A stretch of 61,426 nucleotides of DNA, filler included, from an uncultured Methanosarcinales archaeon (lineage in GTDB: Archaea > Nanobdellota > Nanobdellia > Woesearchaeales > CAYZNE01), in the NCBI GenBank assembly GCA_964405295.1. It is 18 parts of 18 records of this genome, joined end to end, with 100 filler letters (N's around TTAATTAATTAA, not from the genome) between each part and the next. Parts side by side here need not be neighbours in the genome. Positions count along the whole stretch, not along the records: positions 35,453 to 38,637 come from CAYONI010000068.1; 17 more parts are not named here. One strand, given 5' to 3'. Positions 1 through 38,754 of this stretch are shown here, one piece after another. Numbering within the stretch: the stretch's first letter is position 1; every line of letters begins with the position of its first letter. The notes under the pieces were generated by a model, which was not told the origin of the DNA, searched no databases, and saw nothing but the letters and a program-made list of their open reading frames with translations. The position numbers and the translations under genes were made by a program.

Positions 1-555
1 CATTACACTATATCCATTCGCTTCAAAAATTGATTTTATTATATCTATAACGTATTCATCTTTATATTTCTCATCAAATCCAATACACAAATCTGGAAAG
101 TCACTATCTCCAAACAATTTACTTGCGACTTTATCTAAATAACTATGACAATCTATTACAAGTAAATCATTACCTCCTAGTATTGTTTCTTCAGTATATG
201 AATCTAGTTGTTGATGGTGGGCTTCATAAAAATTATTGAGTATAAGACTAGATTTATTCTCATTGAGAGACCTAATCAAGGTGCCATCATAAACATTTGT
301 ATATATTGGACCCATTCCATACTTTGCAAAAGGTTCTAATTCTGGATTCGTAAATTTTTCTACATCACAAAAGAGTCGTGAACAATTAAATCTTACACTA
401 TGAAACTTATCATACTCAAAAATCTTATCGGTGTGTATATCACTCATTTCAATATTATACTCTTTAAGCAGATTTTGGTTTATAAGGTAATCATTAAGAT
501 ACTCATTTGGAATGAATAGTGATGAGTGTGGAATATGAAGCATGATTTTTCTCAT
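1..555 (-). CDS. N-formylglutamate amidohydrolase family protein (3'-truncated by window edge)
   Basis: Manual translation: MRKIMLHIPHSS...SRLFCDVEKF...FYEAHH...VIDCHSY...PDLCIG. HIPH and DCHS are family motifs. GGAGG RBS upstream. Confidence 0.75.
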   Translation of the reverse strand, partial: MRKIMLHIPHSSLFIPNEYLNDYLINQNLLKEYNIEMSDIHTDKIFEYDKFHSVRFNCSRLFCDVEKFTNPELEPFAKYGMGPIYTNVYDGTLIRSLNENKSSLILNNFYEAHHQQLDSYTEETILGGNDLLVIDCHSYLDKVASKLFGDSDFPDLCIGFDEKYKDEYVIDIIKSIFEANGYSVM

Positions 556-676
556 ACAAATTGCCTCCTTTTATTAAAAGTATATAATACTTTCTCTTAA
601 TAGTATCTTCCTTTGATTTTGAAAGACAACTTTACATACTTGTGTCGATGAAATTACATATTAATTAAATTAAACC

Positions 677-1321
677 CTATCCCTCATTATCAACGATGGT
701 TTTTCGTTCTGTTAATTTCGTCCCATTAAACTCAAAAAATGCAGGACCTTGATATGACCCGGATGGATTGGTGAGTCCTTTTCGATCATATATTTCTTTT
801 GTCAATGGAGACAAATACCACAATTCCTCTTCGAAAAGTACTTGTCTATGTCCAGTAACAATAGCTGTGATACCTGAATCATTGATGAAATTGACAATAT
901 CTCCATCTTTTAAGCCTTTTTTATAAAAGTCGAATCTTTCGCCCTTAGTTTTTCTACCAGACGTAGTTTTGGTTTCAACTTCAACATTATCGCCGAAAAG
1001 TTCCACTTCTGCTTCCTCGCCTAATAATTCTCTGATATCATACAAGATATCATATGCTTTTTCTGGAGCAATATTAAAAAACTCTCGTTTTTTGTTGATT
1101 CTTAAATCGGAAATTCTATCTATGCTCTGATGAATAAATTTTTCGGCTTCATTATATTTTCTGGTTTTTAATGTAGCGTATATTTCATAAGGCAATGGAA
1201 CTGCAGTATTGAAAAGTTCTCTGCTTCGAACATCAGGCATTCTTTTGCTTTTTCCGATTTTAACCCAATCTTCTCTAAAACTAGGATTGATTAATACATA
1301 TACATATCCTTTTTCATTCAT
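677..1321 (-). CDS. GIY-YIG-like (T5orf172-type) nuclease domain protein
   Basis: GYVYVLINP...VKIG, E..IH and REFF motifs; directly downstream of res. Confidence 0.8.
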   Translation of the reverse strand: MNEKGYVYVLINPSFREDWVKIGKSKRMPDVRSRELFNTAVPLPYEIYATLKTRKYNEAEKFIHQSIDRISDLRINKKREFFNIAPEKAYDILYDIRELLGEEAEVELFGDNVEVETKTTSGRKTKGERFDFYKKGLKDGDIVNFINDSGITAIVTGHRQVLFEEELWYLSPLTKEIYDRKGLTNPSGSYQGPAFFEFNGTKLTERKTIVDNEG

Positions 1322-1375
1322 ATTTTTTACCCTCCTACTATTTGTACAAATTCTATATTTAAGTGTGAATAATTA

Positions 1376-3870
1376 TCAAGTATTCTGTTTTAAACTTTTA
1401 AGTCTGTTAACTACTTCAAATTTGACTCCACTTTGAAGAACTTCAAAATGCTTTCTACCACACAATATTTTATTATTTTCACTTTCTCTAAGTTCTTCTT
1501 TCTTCTCTGAACCTTTTGTTTCAGCTACAAAATATAATTTATCTTCTCCACTTGATTGAATTACAACAATCCAATCTGGATTATAATTACCAAATGGAGT
1601 ATCAACTACAAATCTTCTAGGCAGTTTCGCATAAAGTACTACATCTTCATCATCTTCAGCATCTATAGCGAATTGTTTTTCTACTGTTGAGTCAAAAATT
1701 ACATGGTCATAAATATTTTTTTCATCAGATATATCAATCACATTTTTATCTTTATATCCAAAAAGTTCTGTATCATCAAAGACATTTTCTTGAACATAAT
1801 AATCTTCAGATTGATAATATTTCAATCCCTTAGAAAGATTTGTTTTTTTAACAGCGTTTAAAATAGAAGATACATTTTTTATAAATGATTCCGGATTATC
1901 ATAAAATTCATTAAGCCTTCCTGATTCTTTTATTATCTCTATTATTGTTGAACGCATTAAATGAGTGGCGTCCTGAAATCTTCTAATAAAATCAGGATAA
2001 ATAATCGTTTCAAATTCGTTTATATCACCAACAGAACCATATCTAGTTGTGCCTTCTTGAACTACTCCTCCTCCAGTAATGTTGAGCCTTGTTCTCTCTC
2101 TCGCAATTTTTTCTGTTACTATTTTGGGCATTGAACTGATTTTCTCGACTGCATCAGCTTTTAACTTGTGCAAGTCCATTTCAACTGAGTATAATGTTTT
2201 ATTTTTTATTCGATTCCACATATCTTTGAAAGCATCAGACAAAAATACTTTTTTGTTTATATTGACTTTTACTTTTTCATTAGCATTTTTAATTCCAATT
2301 TCACGAGATAACTTCTTAATGGTAAAGATAATCTTGTCCTGGAATAAATTATATTCATCCGGAAGTTTAAACTCATTACTTTGAATATCCATATTAAATT
2401 TATCTTCAATTTTTCCATTTGCTTTTAGGTAGTTATTATCTTTTAAAAACACAAATATTTTTGCTGAATCCTCTTGTGACAATATAAGTTCTTGTCCATA
2501 TACAGTCGTTAACTCAAGGCCAGCAAAACTGATTTTTTCAATAATTCCAAATTTATATCCTGCATCTTTTTCAAGTTCTTTTTGGAGGCTTCCAGCAAAA
2601 TCTTTATATGATTCATTAGCAACGACACTTAAAATGTTGAATTTAGGTTCATTAACACGCTCTCCATTTTGATTAACACAAATACGTAGCCCTCGCCCAA
2701 TCTTTTGTCTTTTTGTCATTGTATCTTTTGTTTCAACTAGTGTACATACTTGGAATACATTTGGATTATCCCAACCTTCTTTTAATGCTGAATGCGAAAA
2801 AATAAAGCGAAGTGGTTCACCTATACTTAAAAGGCGTTCTTTATCACGCATGATTTTCTCATAAGTTGATTCATCAGCAGCTGAATCTCCTCTAGTATCT
2901 TTTACCTTCCCTTTTTTATCAACTGAAAAGTAGCCATCATGTACTTTTTCTGGATCAAAAGATATTTTTTGGTTATACGCATCTTTTAGCCTTTTAAAAC
3001 GTCCATTTATCAACTTAATATATTCTTCTTCAAACCAAGTTGCATAAATTCCCTTTCCTGGCTGGTCTCCTTCATAAGTACGGTATTTATTTACTTGGTC
3101 AATAAAAAATAAACTTAGCACTTTGATTCCATGTTTTAAATAGGTTTCTTCTTTTTTAAGATGAAGTTCAATCGTTTCTCTAATTTGAGCTCGCTTTATA
3201 GCATCCTGATTAATCTCACCAATAGATTCTCCTTTGTTTACAGTAACTCCATTTGTAAAATAGATATAATCTATATCATCAAATGTTCCTATATCATCAA
3301 GAATATAGTTCATGTCTTTATAATAATCAACCCCGCCGGATTTTTCCCACAAATCTTCACTAGTTTTAGTTGTAACTGTTCCTTTTGAAATAGAACCATC
3401 TTTATTCAGTTTGTTTATTTCTAATTTAGCTGTATAACCATTCTTGTCATTAATTGATATTAGCTTTATATATGGCTTAGCCGTTGTTTCATCACTTTGT
3501 AGAGATGAAACTTCAATATGTTTAACTAGATTTTCTTGGTATGCATCAACTGGTGTTAATCGATACATTAAATTGTATAATTTGCGATGAGTTGCAGAAT
3601 AGCGCAAAGTACACATTGGATTTAATGACTTAATTGCTTCTTTTGCTTTTTTTGTATTATCAACTGATTGTGGTTCATCAATGATAACAATAGGATTTGT
3701 ACTAGCAATTAAGTCGATTGGTTTATTACCGCTTAGCTTATCACTAGCTCGATGAATAATATTCGCTTTTGTCTCTTTTTCAGGATCATCAAAGCTTTTT
3801 CTAAAAGCATCAATATTAATAATCATGATTTCAATATTTGAACTTGTAGCAAATGTTTGAATTTGTGTTA
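1376..3870 (-). CDS. res: Type III restriction-modification Res subunit (5'-truncated)
   Basis: IIDEPQ, RYSATH, LKEGWDNPNVFQVC and QKIGRGLR helicase motifs; C-terminal YNPDW...AETKG PD-(D/E)xK nuclease. Frame open to the contig edge. Confidence 0.9.
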
Positions 3871-34591: not shown

Positions 34592-35352
34592 ATGTTAAAA
34601 TTAAGCAAGATGTTAATTATTCTATGTATAGTTGGTTTTGCCATTTGTTACTATCAAGTAAAAAAACTACCAGCCAAAAATTGTATTATATCAGAAATAT
34701 ATATCCAGCCCAGCCAGCGAGAAATAAACAAAAAGCCCTTTACGTTAAAAAGAGGAGACATTACTTATTTAATCAGGCCACTATATGATTATGAGATTTA
34801 TGGTTTGGTGGTTTCATATCACAATTCGACGAGTTGGTTTGATTATTATCACGCTTCTTGGAAAGATTCGTTAAATGTTAAGGATATTGGTTTGGTTTGG
34901 GGAGATAATTTAAAAAGCGGCATTTATAGTATGATGCGTTTTTCAAGCGGTAGTTGGACACTTTACTATAATTTTAAACCTACAGTTACGAGAGATGAAT
35001 CGAAAAAATTCAAATATAATCAATTTTCCAATAATCATCTTTTGACTCAGGATTCAGAGATAAACAAATTAATTATGAATACTAAAATTGGTGATCAGAT
35101 CTGGCTTAAAGGATATCTAGTTGAGTACGAACATAGCGGTACTTTTAAGAGAGGTACAAGTACTACTAGAAACGATAAGGGCCAAGGCGCCTGTGAAACA
35201 ATATTTGTTACAGATTATAAAATACTTAAAAAATGCAATATTTTATGGCATTATTTATATAGAGGGTTTAAATATCTCATATTTATAAGCTTGGTTGCAA
35301 TGATTATATTGTTTATAAAGGGACCTTTGTATCGACATCCAAAGACTGAAAG
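34592..35352 (+). CDS. Conserved hypothetical membrane protein (3'-truncated)
   Basis: WG.N, SNNHL, KGYLV and TSTTR.D.G.GACE motifs; N- and C-terminal TM helices. Confidence 0.65.
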
Positions 35353-35452
35353 NNNNNNNNNNNNNNNNNNNNNNNNNNNNNNNNNNNNNNNNNNNNTTAA
35401 TTAATTAANNNNNNNNNNNNNNNNNNNNNNNNNNNNNNNNNNNNNNNNNNNN

Positions 35453-35908
35453 AATCCCAGGAAGAATGACAAGGCAGTGGACATAGTGGAAAAATCAATC
35501 AAAGAGTTCGGTTTTAAGAATCCGATCGTACTGGACAAGAATAATGAAATAATAGTGGGCCACACAAGACTCAGAGCAGCCAAAAAACTCGGAATGAAGG
35601 AAGTACCGGTTATTTTCGCAGAAGAACTAACACCCGAGCAAGTAAAAGCATTCAGAATAATGGACAACAAATCAAGCGAGATAGCAAAATGGGACTTCGA
35701 TTTATTAAAAGTAGAGTTTGAAAGCATGCAAAATTTAGAGTTTACAGGATTCACGGAAGCAGAAATAGATAAGATACTTGATCCAATTGACAAAATAAGC
35801 ATGGGAAACATCGAACCAAAGCATAAAATAGAATTAGGAGATGTTTATGGTCTTGGAGCTTATATTATTAAAAACGGAAAGGAGATTGAAGTAGAAATTA
35901 TAAAATAG
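35453..35908 (+). CDS. ParB/Srx N-terminal part of a viral ParB-DNA methyltransferase (split gene, part 1)
   Basis: NPRKND..V...SIKEFGF..PI, IIVGHTR and DNK...A.WD motifs; ends LGDVYGLG plus a 16-aa tail. Confidence 0.88.
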   Translation, partial: NPRKNDKAVDIVEKSIKEFGFKNPIVLDKNNEIIVGHTRLRAAKKLGMKEVPVIFAEELTPEQVKAFRIMDNKSSEIAKWDFDLLKVEFESMQNLEFTGFTEAEIDKILDPIDKISMGNIEPKHKIELGDVYGLGAYIIKNGKEIEVEIIK

Positions 35909-35921
35909 AAAGTTTTATTAA
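35908..35921 (+). promoter_or_regulatory. Archaeal-type BRE/TATA element for the HNH gene
   Basis: GAAAGTTTTATTAA ends 21 nt before ATG 35943, consistent with a leaderless transcript. Confidence 0.45.
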
Positions 35922-35942
35922 CGTGTGGTTACACAATAGAGT

Positions 35943-36551
35943 ATGACAATTTGTGGAATTTGTGGAAAAGAAATATGGAAAGCACATTTTAATAAAAAGT
36001 ATTGTTCAGACTCCTGTAAAAAACAGGCAAGAAAAGAATCCAAATTAAAATATAAAAAATCAGAAAAAGGAAAAATATCAAATGAAAAATGGGTCAAAAG
36101 TGATAGAAGAAAAGAAAATGAATTTGGATATAGAAAGAAACCAAGATATAGAAAATTAGCAGTGATTAGGGTTAGAAAATATAATCAAAGGCATCCAGAA
36201 AAACTCAAAGAAAATCAACTCAAGGAAAAGCTAAGAAAGAGATGGCTAACTGATGAAGCACGAAAGAAAAACAGAAGATCATCAAAAAATTATATGCAAA
36301 CCCCAAAGGGAAAGCAATCGAGGAAAAATGGAAAGGCAAAAAGAAGAATGAGAGAAAAAACAGGAAAAGTAACCGCAAGAGAATGGGAAGAAAAACTCAA
36401 AGAGTTTAATCATAGTTGCGCGTATTGTGGTGCTAAAGAAAAGATAGAACAAGATCATATAATTCCATTAAGCAAAGGTGGAACACACGAAATAAAAAAC
36501 ATTCAACCCTTATGCCGAAGTTGTAATGCAAAAAAGAGTGATAAATTATGA
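35943..36551 (+). CDS. HNH (homing-type) endonuclease with N-terminal zinc finger
   Basis: CGICG...YCSDSC; basic linker; CAYCG...DHIIPLSKGG.H...N....C..CN. Confidence 0.92.
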   Translation: MTICGICGKEIWKAHFNKKYCSDSCKKQARKESKLKYKKSEKGKISNEKWVKSDRRKENEFGYRKKPRYRKLAVIRVRKYNQRHPEKLKENQLKEKLRKRWLTDEARKKNRRSSKNYMQTPKGKQSRKNGKAKRRMREKTGKVTAREWEEKLKEFNHSCAYCGAKEKIEQDHIIPLSKGGTHEIKNIQPLCRSCNAKKSDKL

Positions 36552-37402
36552 AAGTTAAAATAATAGAAACAGGAAAGATAGTGGAAATTGATAAATCAGA
36601 TTTGAAATTTAGGCATAGATTAATTTGCGGAGATTCAACAAAGGCCGAGACTTACGAAAGACTAATTCCCAAAGGAACAGACATCCAGTGTGTATTCACC
36701 GATCCGCCATACGGAGTGAGTTATTCCGGAACAAACAATCCAAACGGAAGAGACTGGTCAGTAATTGAAGGAGATGATTTGAGAGGAGACCAATTATATG
36801 ATATGTTAAAAGATTGTTTTGAGCAAGTGAATCAATATTTAATCAAGAATGGGTCTGTTTATATTTTCCACTCAAGCTCAAACCAAATAATCTTCGAAAA
36901 AGCAATGAATTATGCTGGACTACAAGTAAAACAACAATTAATCTGGCACAAACACCACATACTTGGACACTCGAACTATCACTGGTGTCATGAGCCAATT
37001 TTTTATGGATCCAGAATGAACGAGAACCCGGAATGGTTTGGAACACGGGCACAAAAGACAACCCTAAACGAAATAACCCCAGAAGAGATGACACACGAAG
37101 AATTGATAAGATTTGTAAATGCAATCAAAGAAGATTCAACAATATGGAAGATCAAGAAGGACTCATCTAAGAATTACATCCATCCAACCCAAAAACCAAC
37201 AAAACTGGCCCAGAGAGCAATGCTAAACAGTACAAAGAAAGGACAATACGTGTTGGATCCATTCGCGGGAAGCGGAAGCACACTGATGGCCTGTGAAGAA
37301 AGAAAAAGGAAATGTTTCTCAATCGAACTGGACACAACATTCTGCTCACACATAATCGAAAGATGGGAAAACTACACAGGGAAAGAGGGGGTTAAATTAT
37401 AA
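36548..37402 (+). CDS. N6/N4 DNA methyltransferase catalytic part (split gene, part 2)
   Basis: 21-aa leader, then RHRLICGDST, TDPPY, HPTQKP and DPFAGSGST. Confidence 0.9.
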   Translation: MKVKIIETGKIVEIDKSDLKFRHRLICGDSTKAETYERLIPKGTDIQCVFTDPPYGVSYSGTNNPNGRDWSVIEGDDLRGDQLYDMLKDCFEQVNQYLIKNGSVYIFHSSSNQIIFEKAMNYAGLQVKQQLIWHKHHILGHSNYHWCHEPIFYGSRMNENPEWFGTRAQKTTLNEITPEEMTHEELIRFVNAIKEDSTIWKIKKDSSKNYIHPTQKPTKLAQRAMLNSTKKGQYVLDPFAGSGSTLMACEERKRKCFSIELDTTFCSHIIERWENYTGKEGVKL

Positions 37403-37647
37403 TGGCAAATTTTAAGAAAGCAATTGAATGGTTATTGGATGGAAAAAAGATAAGAAGAGTTGAAGCATGGGCAAGATCCCCCGGAACCTATATCTTTGAA
37501 CATGAAGCAAATGGAATAATGGAATACAATGAAGATGCATATGATAATTGGGAAGAGATAGAAGGAATAGAAAATACAGGATATCCAATCATGACTGTTA
37601 ATGATTTTATTGCACACGATTGGGAAATTTTTGAGGAAGTGAAATAA
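37402..37647 (+). CDS. DUF2829 / Tad2-like protein
   Basis: NFKKAIEWLLDGKKIRR...W...YI and D..A.DWE terminal motifs. Confidence 0.6.
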   Translation: MANFKKAIEWLLDGKKIRRVEAWARSPGTYIFEHEANGIMEYNEDAYDNWEEIEGIENTGYPIMTVNDFIAHDWEIFEEVK

Positions 37648-37648
37648 G

Positions 37649-38362
37649 GTGAAAACGGTTGAGTTTTTTGCAGGGACACAATCCTTCAGCAAAATAGCAA
37701 GAGAACGCGGACACGAAACAATCTGCATTGATAATAATAAGAATTTTGGAAATGATATCTGTTTTAATATGCTTTGGAAATTAACTGATGAGATTAATCA
37801 AGCAATCCAAGAAGCAGATGTGATATGGATGTCCCCCCCTTGCACTGCATTCAGCATAGCCGCAGGAAGCACTCACTGGACACCGGAACACAAACACAAA
37901 ACAGAACAAGCAGTACTCGGAAAGAGATTATTGGATATTTGCTGGAAAATCGCAGAGACTTGCATAAAGAACAATAAGATATTCTTCATAGAAAACCCAA
38001 GGGCCAGAGCCAGGTGGTTCCTCCCAACAGATTGCAGGGAGACAATTTGGTACTGCCAATACGGAGACACAAGAGCAAAACCAACAGACATCTGGACAAA
38101 CCTCAAAGGATGGACTCCCAAAACATGCCACAATTACACAAAAGAACAAATCCAAGGATTAGAACCAAAACACTGCCAACATGAAGAAGCACCAAGAGGA
38201 TCCAAAACCGGAACACAAGGACTAAAAGGAAACAAGGATCGTTCAGAGATACCCGGAGACTTATTCAGAGAACTATTCCCATTAATAGAGACACAAATGG
38301 GCCTTAAATTGAACGAAACAGACCAAAAAGAGCCAAAAGAAGCTCCAAATGGACTAAAATAA
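37649..38362 (+). CDS. Compact phage-type C5 cytosine methyltransferase
   Basis: EFFAG, SPPC, IENP and YCQYG...KPTDIW motifs. Confidence 0.8.
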   Translation: MKTVEFFAGTQSFSKIARERGHETICIDNNKNFGNDICFNMLWKLTDEINQAIQEADVIWMSPPCTAFSIAAGSTHWTPEHKHKTEQAVLGKRLLDICWKIAETCIKNNKIFFIENPRARARWFLPTDCRETIWYCQYGDTRAKPTDIWTNLKGWTPKTCHNYTKEQIQGLEPKHCQHEEAPRGSKTGTQGLKGNKDRSEIPGDLFRELFPLIETQMGLKLNETDQKEPKEAPNGLK

Positions 38363-38637: not shown

Positions 38638-38754
38638 NNNNNNNNNNNNNNNNNNNNNNNNNNNNNNNNNNNNNNNNNNNNTTAATTAATTAANNNNNNN
38701 NNNNNNNNNNNNNNNNNNNNNNNNNNNNNNNNNNNNNCTAGAGAGGAGTATTAT

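Follow-up and report, generated by a model that had tools for sequence, protein, structure and literature searches.

We report that the gene for a viral ParB-N6/N4 DNA methyltransferase, at 35453..37402 (plus strand, as are all parts of the split gene given below) of the window, that is, of the whole 61,426-nt stretch of DNA analysed here, is broken into two open reading frames (ORFs) by a net insert of 753 nt. The insert brings in a free-standing HNH endonuclease gene together with the codons of two short peptides, a C-terminal tail on the upstream half of the enzyme (part 1) and an N-terminal leader on the downstream half (part 2). We are close to certain that the insert is a mobile cassette, and consider it very probable that the two peptides, whose sequence patterns recur in distant relatives, are translated and under selection. 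Judging from structure models, they probably also mediate association of the two halves, and the best explanation of the whole, in which we place fair confidence, is a mobile HNH cassette with clasping end peptides lodged in a viral ParB-N6/N4 methyltransferase.

The split gene is carried by one 3185-nt contig (35453..38637). Since the window is a concatenation of contigs of 3–4 kb, with 17 joints of the form N..TTAATTAATTAA..N (for example 35397..35408 and 38682..38693), genes on either side of a spacer are no true neighbours; the 5′ end of part 1 is truncated by the contig end and has no biological cause. Part 1 as a whole (35453..35908) matches ParB_N in Pfam (E 1.5e-7); at its end ...KHKIELGDVYGLG runs into AYIIKNGKEIEVEIIK and a stop. 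Its native portion (35453..35857) consists of the ParB N-terminal domain, a linker and the strand ...KIELGDVYGLG, and its DNA is about 86% identical to that of an uninterrupted allele (contig L002); P0121 (170 aa) is a full-length version of part 1. The cassette begins with the 16-aa tail AYIIKNGKEIEVEIIK and its stop codon (35858..35908, the stop at 35906..35908), to which nothing corresponds in uninterrupted alleles, and continues through a 34-nt spacer (35909..35942) into the HNH gene (35943..36551; 202 aa), which lies in a different frame from the host gene. The HNH protein, with a CxxC zinc motif at its N-terminal end and the HNH motif at its C-terminal end, is encoded by a separate ORF; it matches PF01844 (E 7.6e-14, at 52 bits where the cut-off is 21.4) and has PHROG family matches (best phrog_8660, E 8.8e-17). 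An alignment with contig L006 marks out the last 48 nt or so of the HNH ORF (36503..36551), which hold a Shine–Dalgarno (SD)-like GAGTGA (36536..36541) and the ATGA at 36548 in which the ATG of part 2 overlaps the HNH stop. Part 2 as a whole (36548..37402) reads MKVKIIETGKIVEIDKSDLKF and then RHRLICGDS: a 21-aa cassette leader (36548..36610), followed from (R)HRLICGDS onwards (36611..37402) by an N6/N4 DNA methyltransferase (N6_N4_Mtase, PF01555, E 6.9e-32) with TDPPYG and FAGSGST. The host gene thus has the ParB_N and N6_N4_Mtase domains and the DPPY and FxGxG motifs of a ParB-N6/N4 methyltransferase, and the insert falls between the codons of ...GDVYGLG and (R)HRLICGDS. The initial annotation had described a motif parted into LGDVYGLG and RHRLICGDST by tail, HNH gene and leader, with the leader ATG in the HNH stop, and the ORFs and Pfam matches bear out this layout.

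The spacer contains TTTTATTA (35913..35920), 23–30 nt upstream of the HNH ATG, which is possibly an archaeal TATA-like box. The spacer is kept in contig L001 and deleted in L006, and a small hairpin within it is not significant (z −1.5). A sigma-70 promoter scan, which does not cover archaeal promoters, found no site ahead of the HNH gene; it does not apply to this gene because the genome bin is archaeal.

That the insert moves is indicated by its absence from close relatives and by its likeness between distant ones. The contiguous, uninterrupted methyltransferase domains, 102 of the 110 classified, have no peptides and read ...GDIYQLGDHRLICGDS; the sole uninterrupted homologue with the tails is P0082, considered below. 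The best full-length homologues, P0002 and P0003 (421 aa; 87–90% aa identity to part 2), run unbroken through ...KIELGDIYQLGDHRLICGDS, and their contig, L002, has the same downstream gene and no insert. Insert-free alleles, for which the initial annotation had proposed a search, were also found in metagenome runs. In run X1 a 1013-nt contig bridges 35841→36614 via 19 letters reading ..LYQLGD; on its sequence it is a cassette-free allele, present in the same run as a cassette-bearing contig, and run X3 holds the same empty-site joint. Presence or absence of the insert is therefore polymorphic at one precise site among close alleles. Compared with the window, the X1 contig is a mosaic, with 12 differences in 587 positions on the downstream side of the site and 62 in 389 on the upstream side, which indicates that exchange breaks at the cassette site.

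The split arrangement recurs on the independent contigs L001, L006 and L090, and in the window, L001 and L090 the host gene reads as two separately translated ORFs flanking the endonuclease gene. L090 carries a divergent allele of the host gene with an identical HNH protein: a tract of 752 nt (35831..36582), which takes in the tail and the HNH gene and reaches 35 nt into the leader, is free of mismatches, and all 138 mismatches among 1671 aligned nt lie in the flanks, where identity per 50-nt bin is 72–98%. A metagenome scan with the HNH protein gave only two loci with 100% identity, L090 and L091, the latter 99.96% identical to the window in DNA. In L001 the tail agrees at 14 of 16 residues and the leader at 19 of 21, and the HNH protein (90% aa identity) is closer to that of the window than the host gene is (78% aa); in this split copy the HNH gene is followed, ahead of the leader, by an extra 138-aa ORF (3281..3697) with weak zinc-ribbon matches. 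In L006 the gene cut, at the same LG|HRL point, is a different ParB-methyltransferase, whose methyltransferase body is 36% identical; the tail DNA of L006 is that of L001 except for the stop codon, and 20 of its 21 leader residues are those of the window. A maximum-likelihood tree built from the 110 methyltransferase domains requires five changes in the split or fused state, at least four of these being forced by well-supported branches, and the five split rows stand in at least three separate places. The window and L090 fall together with P0002/P0003, which are uninterrupted (support 96); the placement of L006 is unsure because of its very long branch. The L090 tract, the L006 peptides and the five changes on the tree all have the element more alike than its flanks, and the reading of the initial annotation that the element carries the peptides has held up. 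Comparison of the sequences supports counting tail and leader as parts of the mobile insert and not of the host gene. Following the example of free-standing HNH homing endonucleases, we propose that tail, HNH gene and leader form a homing-endonuclease cassette whose nuclease would cleave the cassette-free allele. Among cultured phages, none of the 402 records matching the HNH protein covers at least 80% of the query.

Two observations on relatives in these searches stand apart. L001 has a second, uninterrupted ParB-methyltransferase paralogue (2..886), followed by a different HNH ORF (921..1577). Acidithiobacillus phage AcaML1 (L098, 16791..19606 of the record) was considered as a split gene and rejected, since its Gp24 and Gp25 are tandem full-length ParB-methyltransferases that mimic a split gene in the tblastn table.

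Forms without the nuclease also exist. In L006 the 49 nt between the halves, all that is kept of the HNH gene, align to the last 48 nt or so of the window HNH ORF, with both the SD-like site and the ATGA overlap, from which it follows that an HNH gene was once present and has since been deleted; about 160 nt of insert are left in all. The joint 35906→36497 in runs X3 and X4, seen independently in L006, and the joints 35893→36517 and 35907→36331 in X3 likewise resemble HNH deletions that keep both peptides; with some short sides and a likeness threshold of 85%, these joints are weak when taken alone. Cassette-free and HNH-deleted forms are present as contigs in the same metagenome runs. A further form is P0082 (469 aa, on four contigs), an uninterrupted protein reading GDIYGLS-PYIERNGQKDVEII-GN-TVRIKETNEIIEIDQKEIKFK-HKLMCADS. 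From its sequence we suggest that P0082 may be a derivative that lost, in frame, the HNH gene together with the stop and the restart; the opposite direction was also considered. P0082 is read as derived because it is one of 110 domains, because its sister P0083 is split (support 97) and other decay stages are seen directly, and because its GN turn lies where the complex model described below pairs the last strand of the tail with the first of the leader.

Considering the peptides themselves, tails occur in 7 of 120 part-1 proteins among the matches listed. At 53–57% part-1 identity, P0129, P0130 and P0138 end GLGAYIEQNGTQLDVEILE, GLSPYIEVDGKKLDVEVIE or GLGPYIEMDGKIYDVEIL, and together with P0082 they keep the pattern Y-I-x-x-[ND]-G-...-[DE]-V-E-[IV]-[IL]. 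The leader pattern V-[KR]-I-x-E-T-[GN]-x-I-x-E-[IV] is kept in P0083 and P0082, and the leader also persists in P0004. Between the window and L090, five of six differences in the leader and the residue before HRL fall at third codon positions, giving four synonymous codons and two conservative changes. The four DNA copies hold too few differences for a ratio of non-synonymous to synonymous substitution rates, and since this sample is small the case for selection leans mainly on the protein patterns. A derivation of the peptides as decayed duplications of the target, the tail resembling the downstream strand and the leader the upstream one, was rejected: the likeness amounts to few residues and, by eye, to about 41% of nt, in AT-rich DNA.

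A distinct set of proteins, P0182, P0208, P0302 and many ParB-only proteins, stop just past the same GDxYxLG junction with other, zinc-ribbon-like tails (...LGKWVICKKCGKKH..., ...LGAYTVCPHCKERNDVD and ...LGKHxIECPKCxHKFERK); to judge by these ends, they may be other split families at the same site.

In structure prediction the two halves come together. Part 2 (with a 50-row alignment) and residues 110–151 of part 1 gave complex scores of 0.85, 0.85 and 0.87, against 0.00 for the best of three controls. The mark applied to such scores is reached by 116 of 157 solved complexes and by 2 of 215 mismatched pairs, counts that are only rough here because the alignments were custom ones. At least 91% of contacts are common to the runs, and the predicted local distance difference test (pLDDT) of the partner is at least 75. 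Contacts join H23–C27 with D130–L134, K20/F21 with A136/Y137, and residues 1–7 of part 2 with tail residues 145–150. The model thus supports a restored strand pair DVYGL/HRLIC (the LG/HRL pair) and a pairing of tail with leader. The initial annotation had named a model of parts 1 and 2 as its check, expecting one barrel from the two peptides and a restored LG/HRL pair; that strand pair came out as it foresaw, and association stands as a prediction. AlphaFold2 (AF2) places five strands in the fused protein P0082 (155–162, 168–173, 176–179, 185–187 and 194–201; pLDDT 87–96), whereas in part 2 alone the leader has a pLDDT of 51–54, the next three 10-residue blocks 91–97 and the whole model a mean of 86.4. 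The fold of the fused relative is that of beta-class methyltransferases, for example CcrM (E 2.9e-14); no solved ParB-methyltransferase is among the fold matches, which cover the methyltransferase only. As for the SH3/Tudor-like barrel that the initial annotation envisaged, a confident five-strand beta unit is predicted in the fused form, but its SH3-like character is a weak lead. An ESM Atlas model of the P0082 stretch has weak look-alikes in biotin-ligase clusters (TM score 0.50–0.57 over 41–51 residues), three of which list the BPL_C family, which we take to be an SH3-like barrel; feature hits for this stretch in the ESM Atlas were all below 0.9. A kinship of the fused peptide unit with the C-terminal domains of biotin ligases is, from these models, a lead only.

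Taking these results together, we suggest the following mechanism. The cassette would consist of a tail-coding end, the HNH gene and a leader-coding end, placed in the turn of the conserved beta-hairpin GDxYxLG | HRLxCGDS, at the boundary of the ParB and methyltransferase portions of the viral enzyme. If it acts as other free-standing HNH homing endonucleases do, the nuclease would cut cassette-free alleles at or near the motif DNA, and repair off a cassette-bearing genome would copy the whole cassette in. The host frame, as read from the sequence, ends after 16 extra codons and restarts 21 codons before HRL, through the ATG overlapping the HNH stop and the SD-like site within the HNH 3′ end; with a stop and a restart in the cassette, the enzyme is made as two polypeptides. 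In the models the extra peptides form beta-hairpins which, with the native hairpin, would build one small beta unit, through the predicted pairs AYI (tail)/LKF (leader), IEVEII (tail)/KVKIIE (leader) and DVYGL/HRLIC, so that the ParB and methyltransferase halves may be held together with neither RNA nor protein splicing. On decay of the HNH gene the peptides remain, as the sequence of L006 shows, and the in-frame fused P0082 may be a further derivative. A stronger form of this proposal, that the cassette is a portable two-piece folding module, whose two beta-hairpins close an SH3-like unit over the turn of the host hairpin, make the gene split harmless and constitute a transferable clasp, is one we put forward tentatively, rating it somewhat short of an even chance.

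Several points weigh against this proposal. The native hairpin would be expected to dock after any cut at this place, and the complex score covers hairpin, tail and leader together; fused homologues were included in the alignments behind it, and what the modelling provides on binding of the halves is a model confidence. ParB-only and methyltransferase-only proteins are common, and the halves might function separately. DNA evidence for selection is thin, the tail differing between the window and L001 by two synonymous and two non-synonymous codons. The initial annotation had expected the same peptides in other hosts; they do occur in the 36%-identical methyltransferase of L006, but the pair is found in ParB-methyltransferase hosts only. 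Degenerate DNA patterns of tail and leader found two IMG/VR contigs, both already known, and no species-representative genome, and exact patterns likewise gave only these two contigs and nothing in representative genome contigs. In a part-1 profile search of 1.84 billion representatives, which was swamped by ordinary ParB domains, one of the 150 best hits had the tail (P0241, ending like part 1 of L006). Finally, the initial annotation had held that uninterrupted homologues natively containing both peptides would speak against a clasp brought by the element. P0082, in which both peptides are fused in frame (1 of 120 among the proteins listed), is formally such a homologue, and the only one, against the 102 of 110 domains that are contiguous and without peptides. 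The split clasp rejoining the host protein, as first conceived, accordingly has comparative and modelling evidence in its favour and stands as a proposal.

Four other explanations have to be weighed, of which a spliced element and a dead gene fare worst. The first holds that the insert is either a group I intron that carries an HNH ORF or an intein, degenerate or split, and that splicing restores a continuous protein. Group I introns of phages commonly contain HNH ORFs, as do some inteins; some inteins start with Ala, as the tail does; the length of the insert is a multiple of three, and parts 1 and 2 share a frame in the window. That common frame appears to have arisen only by chance and is incidental, because in L001 and L006 the frames differ. 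No Rfam match (E≤1) was obtained in 35300–37500 of the window, in L001 or in L006, although a novel catalytic core would be outside the reach of Rfam; the non-coding part of the insert is 34 nt only, and the HNH-deleted form retains little of the rest. The peptides, conserved as protein, total 37 aa, far below the roughly 130 aa or more of Hint blocks, and no Hint/intein family match was found. The last residue of the leader is F, with R-H after it; ahead of HRL there is thus F or R, with R or H at +1, and not Asn followed by Cys, Ser or Thr. The negative scans agree with the initial annotation, which had noted the lack of intein hallmarks and the little room for an intron core, and we regard splicing as very improbable. 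Equally improbable in our estimate is that the insertion killed a dispensable methyltransferase and that the peptides come from chance read-through. Phages can often do without their methyltransferases, as is stated for the ShiLan methylase of actinophages (PMC11855218), but on four independent contigs the open frames and catalytic motifs of both halves are intact, part 2 keeps its start codon and SD-like site even after HNH deletion, and the peptide patterns persist at 53–57% host identity.

The other two accept the split and assign the peptides differently. The ParB and methyltransferase parts may each work alone, the peptides capping beta-edges, stabilizing the fragments or carrying translation signals. 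In favour of such independence, the cut lies at the domain boundary, the Pfam domains ending before it and starting after it; ParB-only proteins of 83–265 aa are numerous, stand-alone N6_N4 methyltransferases (PF01555) are known, and AF2 gives part 2 alone a confident methyltransferase body. Yet the leader, poorly ordered by itself, is ordered in the fused form, where P0082 has both peptides compatible as one unit; the complex model passes with contacts between tail and leader, and a tail without purpose would be unlikely to keep its pattern at 53–57% host identity. We therefore consider independent halves unlikely. A host origin of the peptides is, in our view, rather more doubtful still: a P0082-type subfamily would natively have a beta insertion of about 38 aa between LG and HRL, the HNH gene would have invaded its middle turn, and the halves of that mini-domain would since have been dragged along by co-conversion, so that the peptides still clasp but are not the invention of the element. 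P0082 is indeed uninterrupted, with its peptides joined by the GN turn in a confident fold, and its sister on the tree is the split P0083 (support 97). Against this, a single fused domain among 110 faces five split rows in at least three places of the tree, HNH-deleted derivatives mark a decay from full cassette to remnant, and the peptides today move with the cassette into hosts that lack them. A region search with residues 150–205 of P0082 returned P0082 alone, under a strict word filter which leaves it silent on rarity. The cassette with clasping end peptides therefore remains the explanation that we prefer.

The surroundings of the split gene can be described briefly. Directly 3′ of part 2 is an ORF of 81 aa (37402..37647) resembling the Thoeris anti-defence protein Tad2 (PF11195, E 2.5e-5); the match is at threshold (25.1 bits against a cut-off of 25), there is no PHROG match, and the ORF is missing from L002 and L090. 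It is followed by a gene like those of C5-cytosine methyltransferases (37649..38362; phrog_757, E 1.4e-24), which also stands 3′ of the uninterrupted allele in L002. Many ORFs of L001, L006 and the window (37380..37405) terminate in ...GVKL* or ...EVKL*, because the G-rich ribosome-binding site and overlapping start of the next gene sit in the last codons of the upstream one; these overlaps imply chains of translationally coupled genes in all three. The viral contig is linked by binning only to the bin G000 (1.27 Mb in 98 contigs, 96.8% complete), a small archaeal genome (L099/L100). The bin is taken as archaeal because it encodes a TATA-binding protein (TBP) that has two TBP repeats and because sigma-70 region 2 is lacking; searches of the bin for small-subunit rRNA found nothing.

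If the proposal is correct, a homing endonuclease can enter protein genes with neither intron nor intein, and its clasp moves between methyltransferases that are only 36% identical; after decay of the nuclease the clasp would stay behind, either in a gene that is permanently split or, fused in frame, as a newly inserted domain, which would amount to a general route from selfish nucleases to split genes and domain insertions. Should the peptides clasp, they would constitute a natural, minimal and splicing-free tag for protein reassembly and would document how invasion by a selfish element can lead to fission of a gene or insertion of a domain. The tails here travel with the endonuclease gene between different host genes, and the stages are visible in nature, from the empty site and the full cassette to the nuclease-deleted split and the in-frame fusion.

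Among known systems, the nrdA-a/mobE/nrdA-b arrangement of Aeromonas phage Aeh1, reportedly treated by Friedrich et al. in 2007, has to be considered alongside other endonuclease-split genes. In actinophage DNA methylases of the ShiLan type, as far as the available text of the two papers goes (Arsenault et al., 2025, PMC11855218; Gosselin et al., 2023, PMC9957025), an out-of-frame HNH gene likewise occupies a conserved methylase site, and the HNH gene here is also out of the host frame. The distribution there is similarly disjunct, the element, which is no intron and no intein, is less diverged than the host gene, and the insert is believed to leave enzyme function undisturbed (PMC11855218). 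The ShiLan insert, however, is read through in the methylase frame, with no stop, as a 202-aa loop (PMC11855218), whereas here a stop closes the host frame after 16 codons and a restart follows, so that two proteins result, each with an end peptide of its own. The word 'ParB' occurs 0 times in the available text of these papers. Genes fractured around split inteins share with our locus a host gene in two pieces and an endonuclease gene between them, and their end peptides associate, as is predicted here (Dassa et al., 2009, PMC2677866, in the portion available). The ends there are intein halves that ligate the exteins; the 37 aa here contain no intein blocks, and with no Cys, Ser or Thr at +1 no ligation is expected. 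In phage T4, gene 39/mobA/gene 60 is also an enzyme gene split by an endonuclease gene, its products having tail-like extensions, but the role of those tails is speculative and a 50-nt translational bypass operates there, of which we see no sign here (as covered in the accessible part of PMC3045599).

The Aeh1 system bears most directly on the novelty of the locus. Searches of the literature found no description of a split ParB-methyltransferase with cassette-borne peptides, but the statement of the initial annotation that no element-borne adaptor of this kind had been described went too far. Crona et al. (2011, PMC3045599), in the text accessible to us, found the tails created by the mobE insertion to be essential for the split NrdA of Aeh1, called them a "molecular antidote to fragmentation" and predicted further cases. 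As described in that text, a free-standing HNH-family gene splits the host gene between two adjacent beta-strands and overlaps the downstream half, with no RNA or protein splicing, just as here; a single transposition accounts for that system, in contrast to the cassette here, which moves between alleles and into a methyltransferase 36% identical. The Aeh1 tails are oppositely charged, dispensable for the a/b heterodimer and promote dimerization of heterodimers (PMC3045599), whereas the tails here are beta-hairpins predicted to fold together with the native hairpin into one unit, and derivatives that have lost the HNH gene or are fused in frame occur in nature. Reassembly of an HNH-split gene product by tails derived from the element is therefore an already published principle, of which the present locus is a variant; it offers a second system besides Aeh1, and one easier to test, with tails that are short, structured and conserved.

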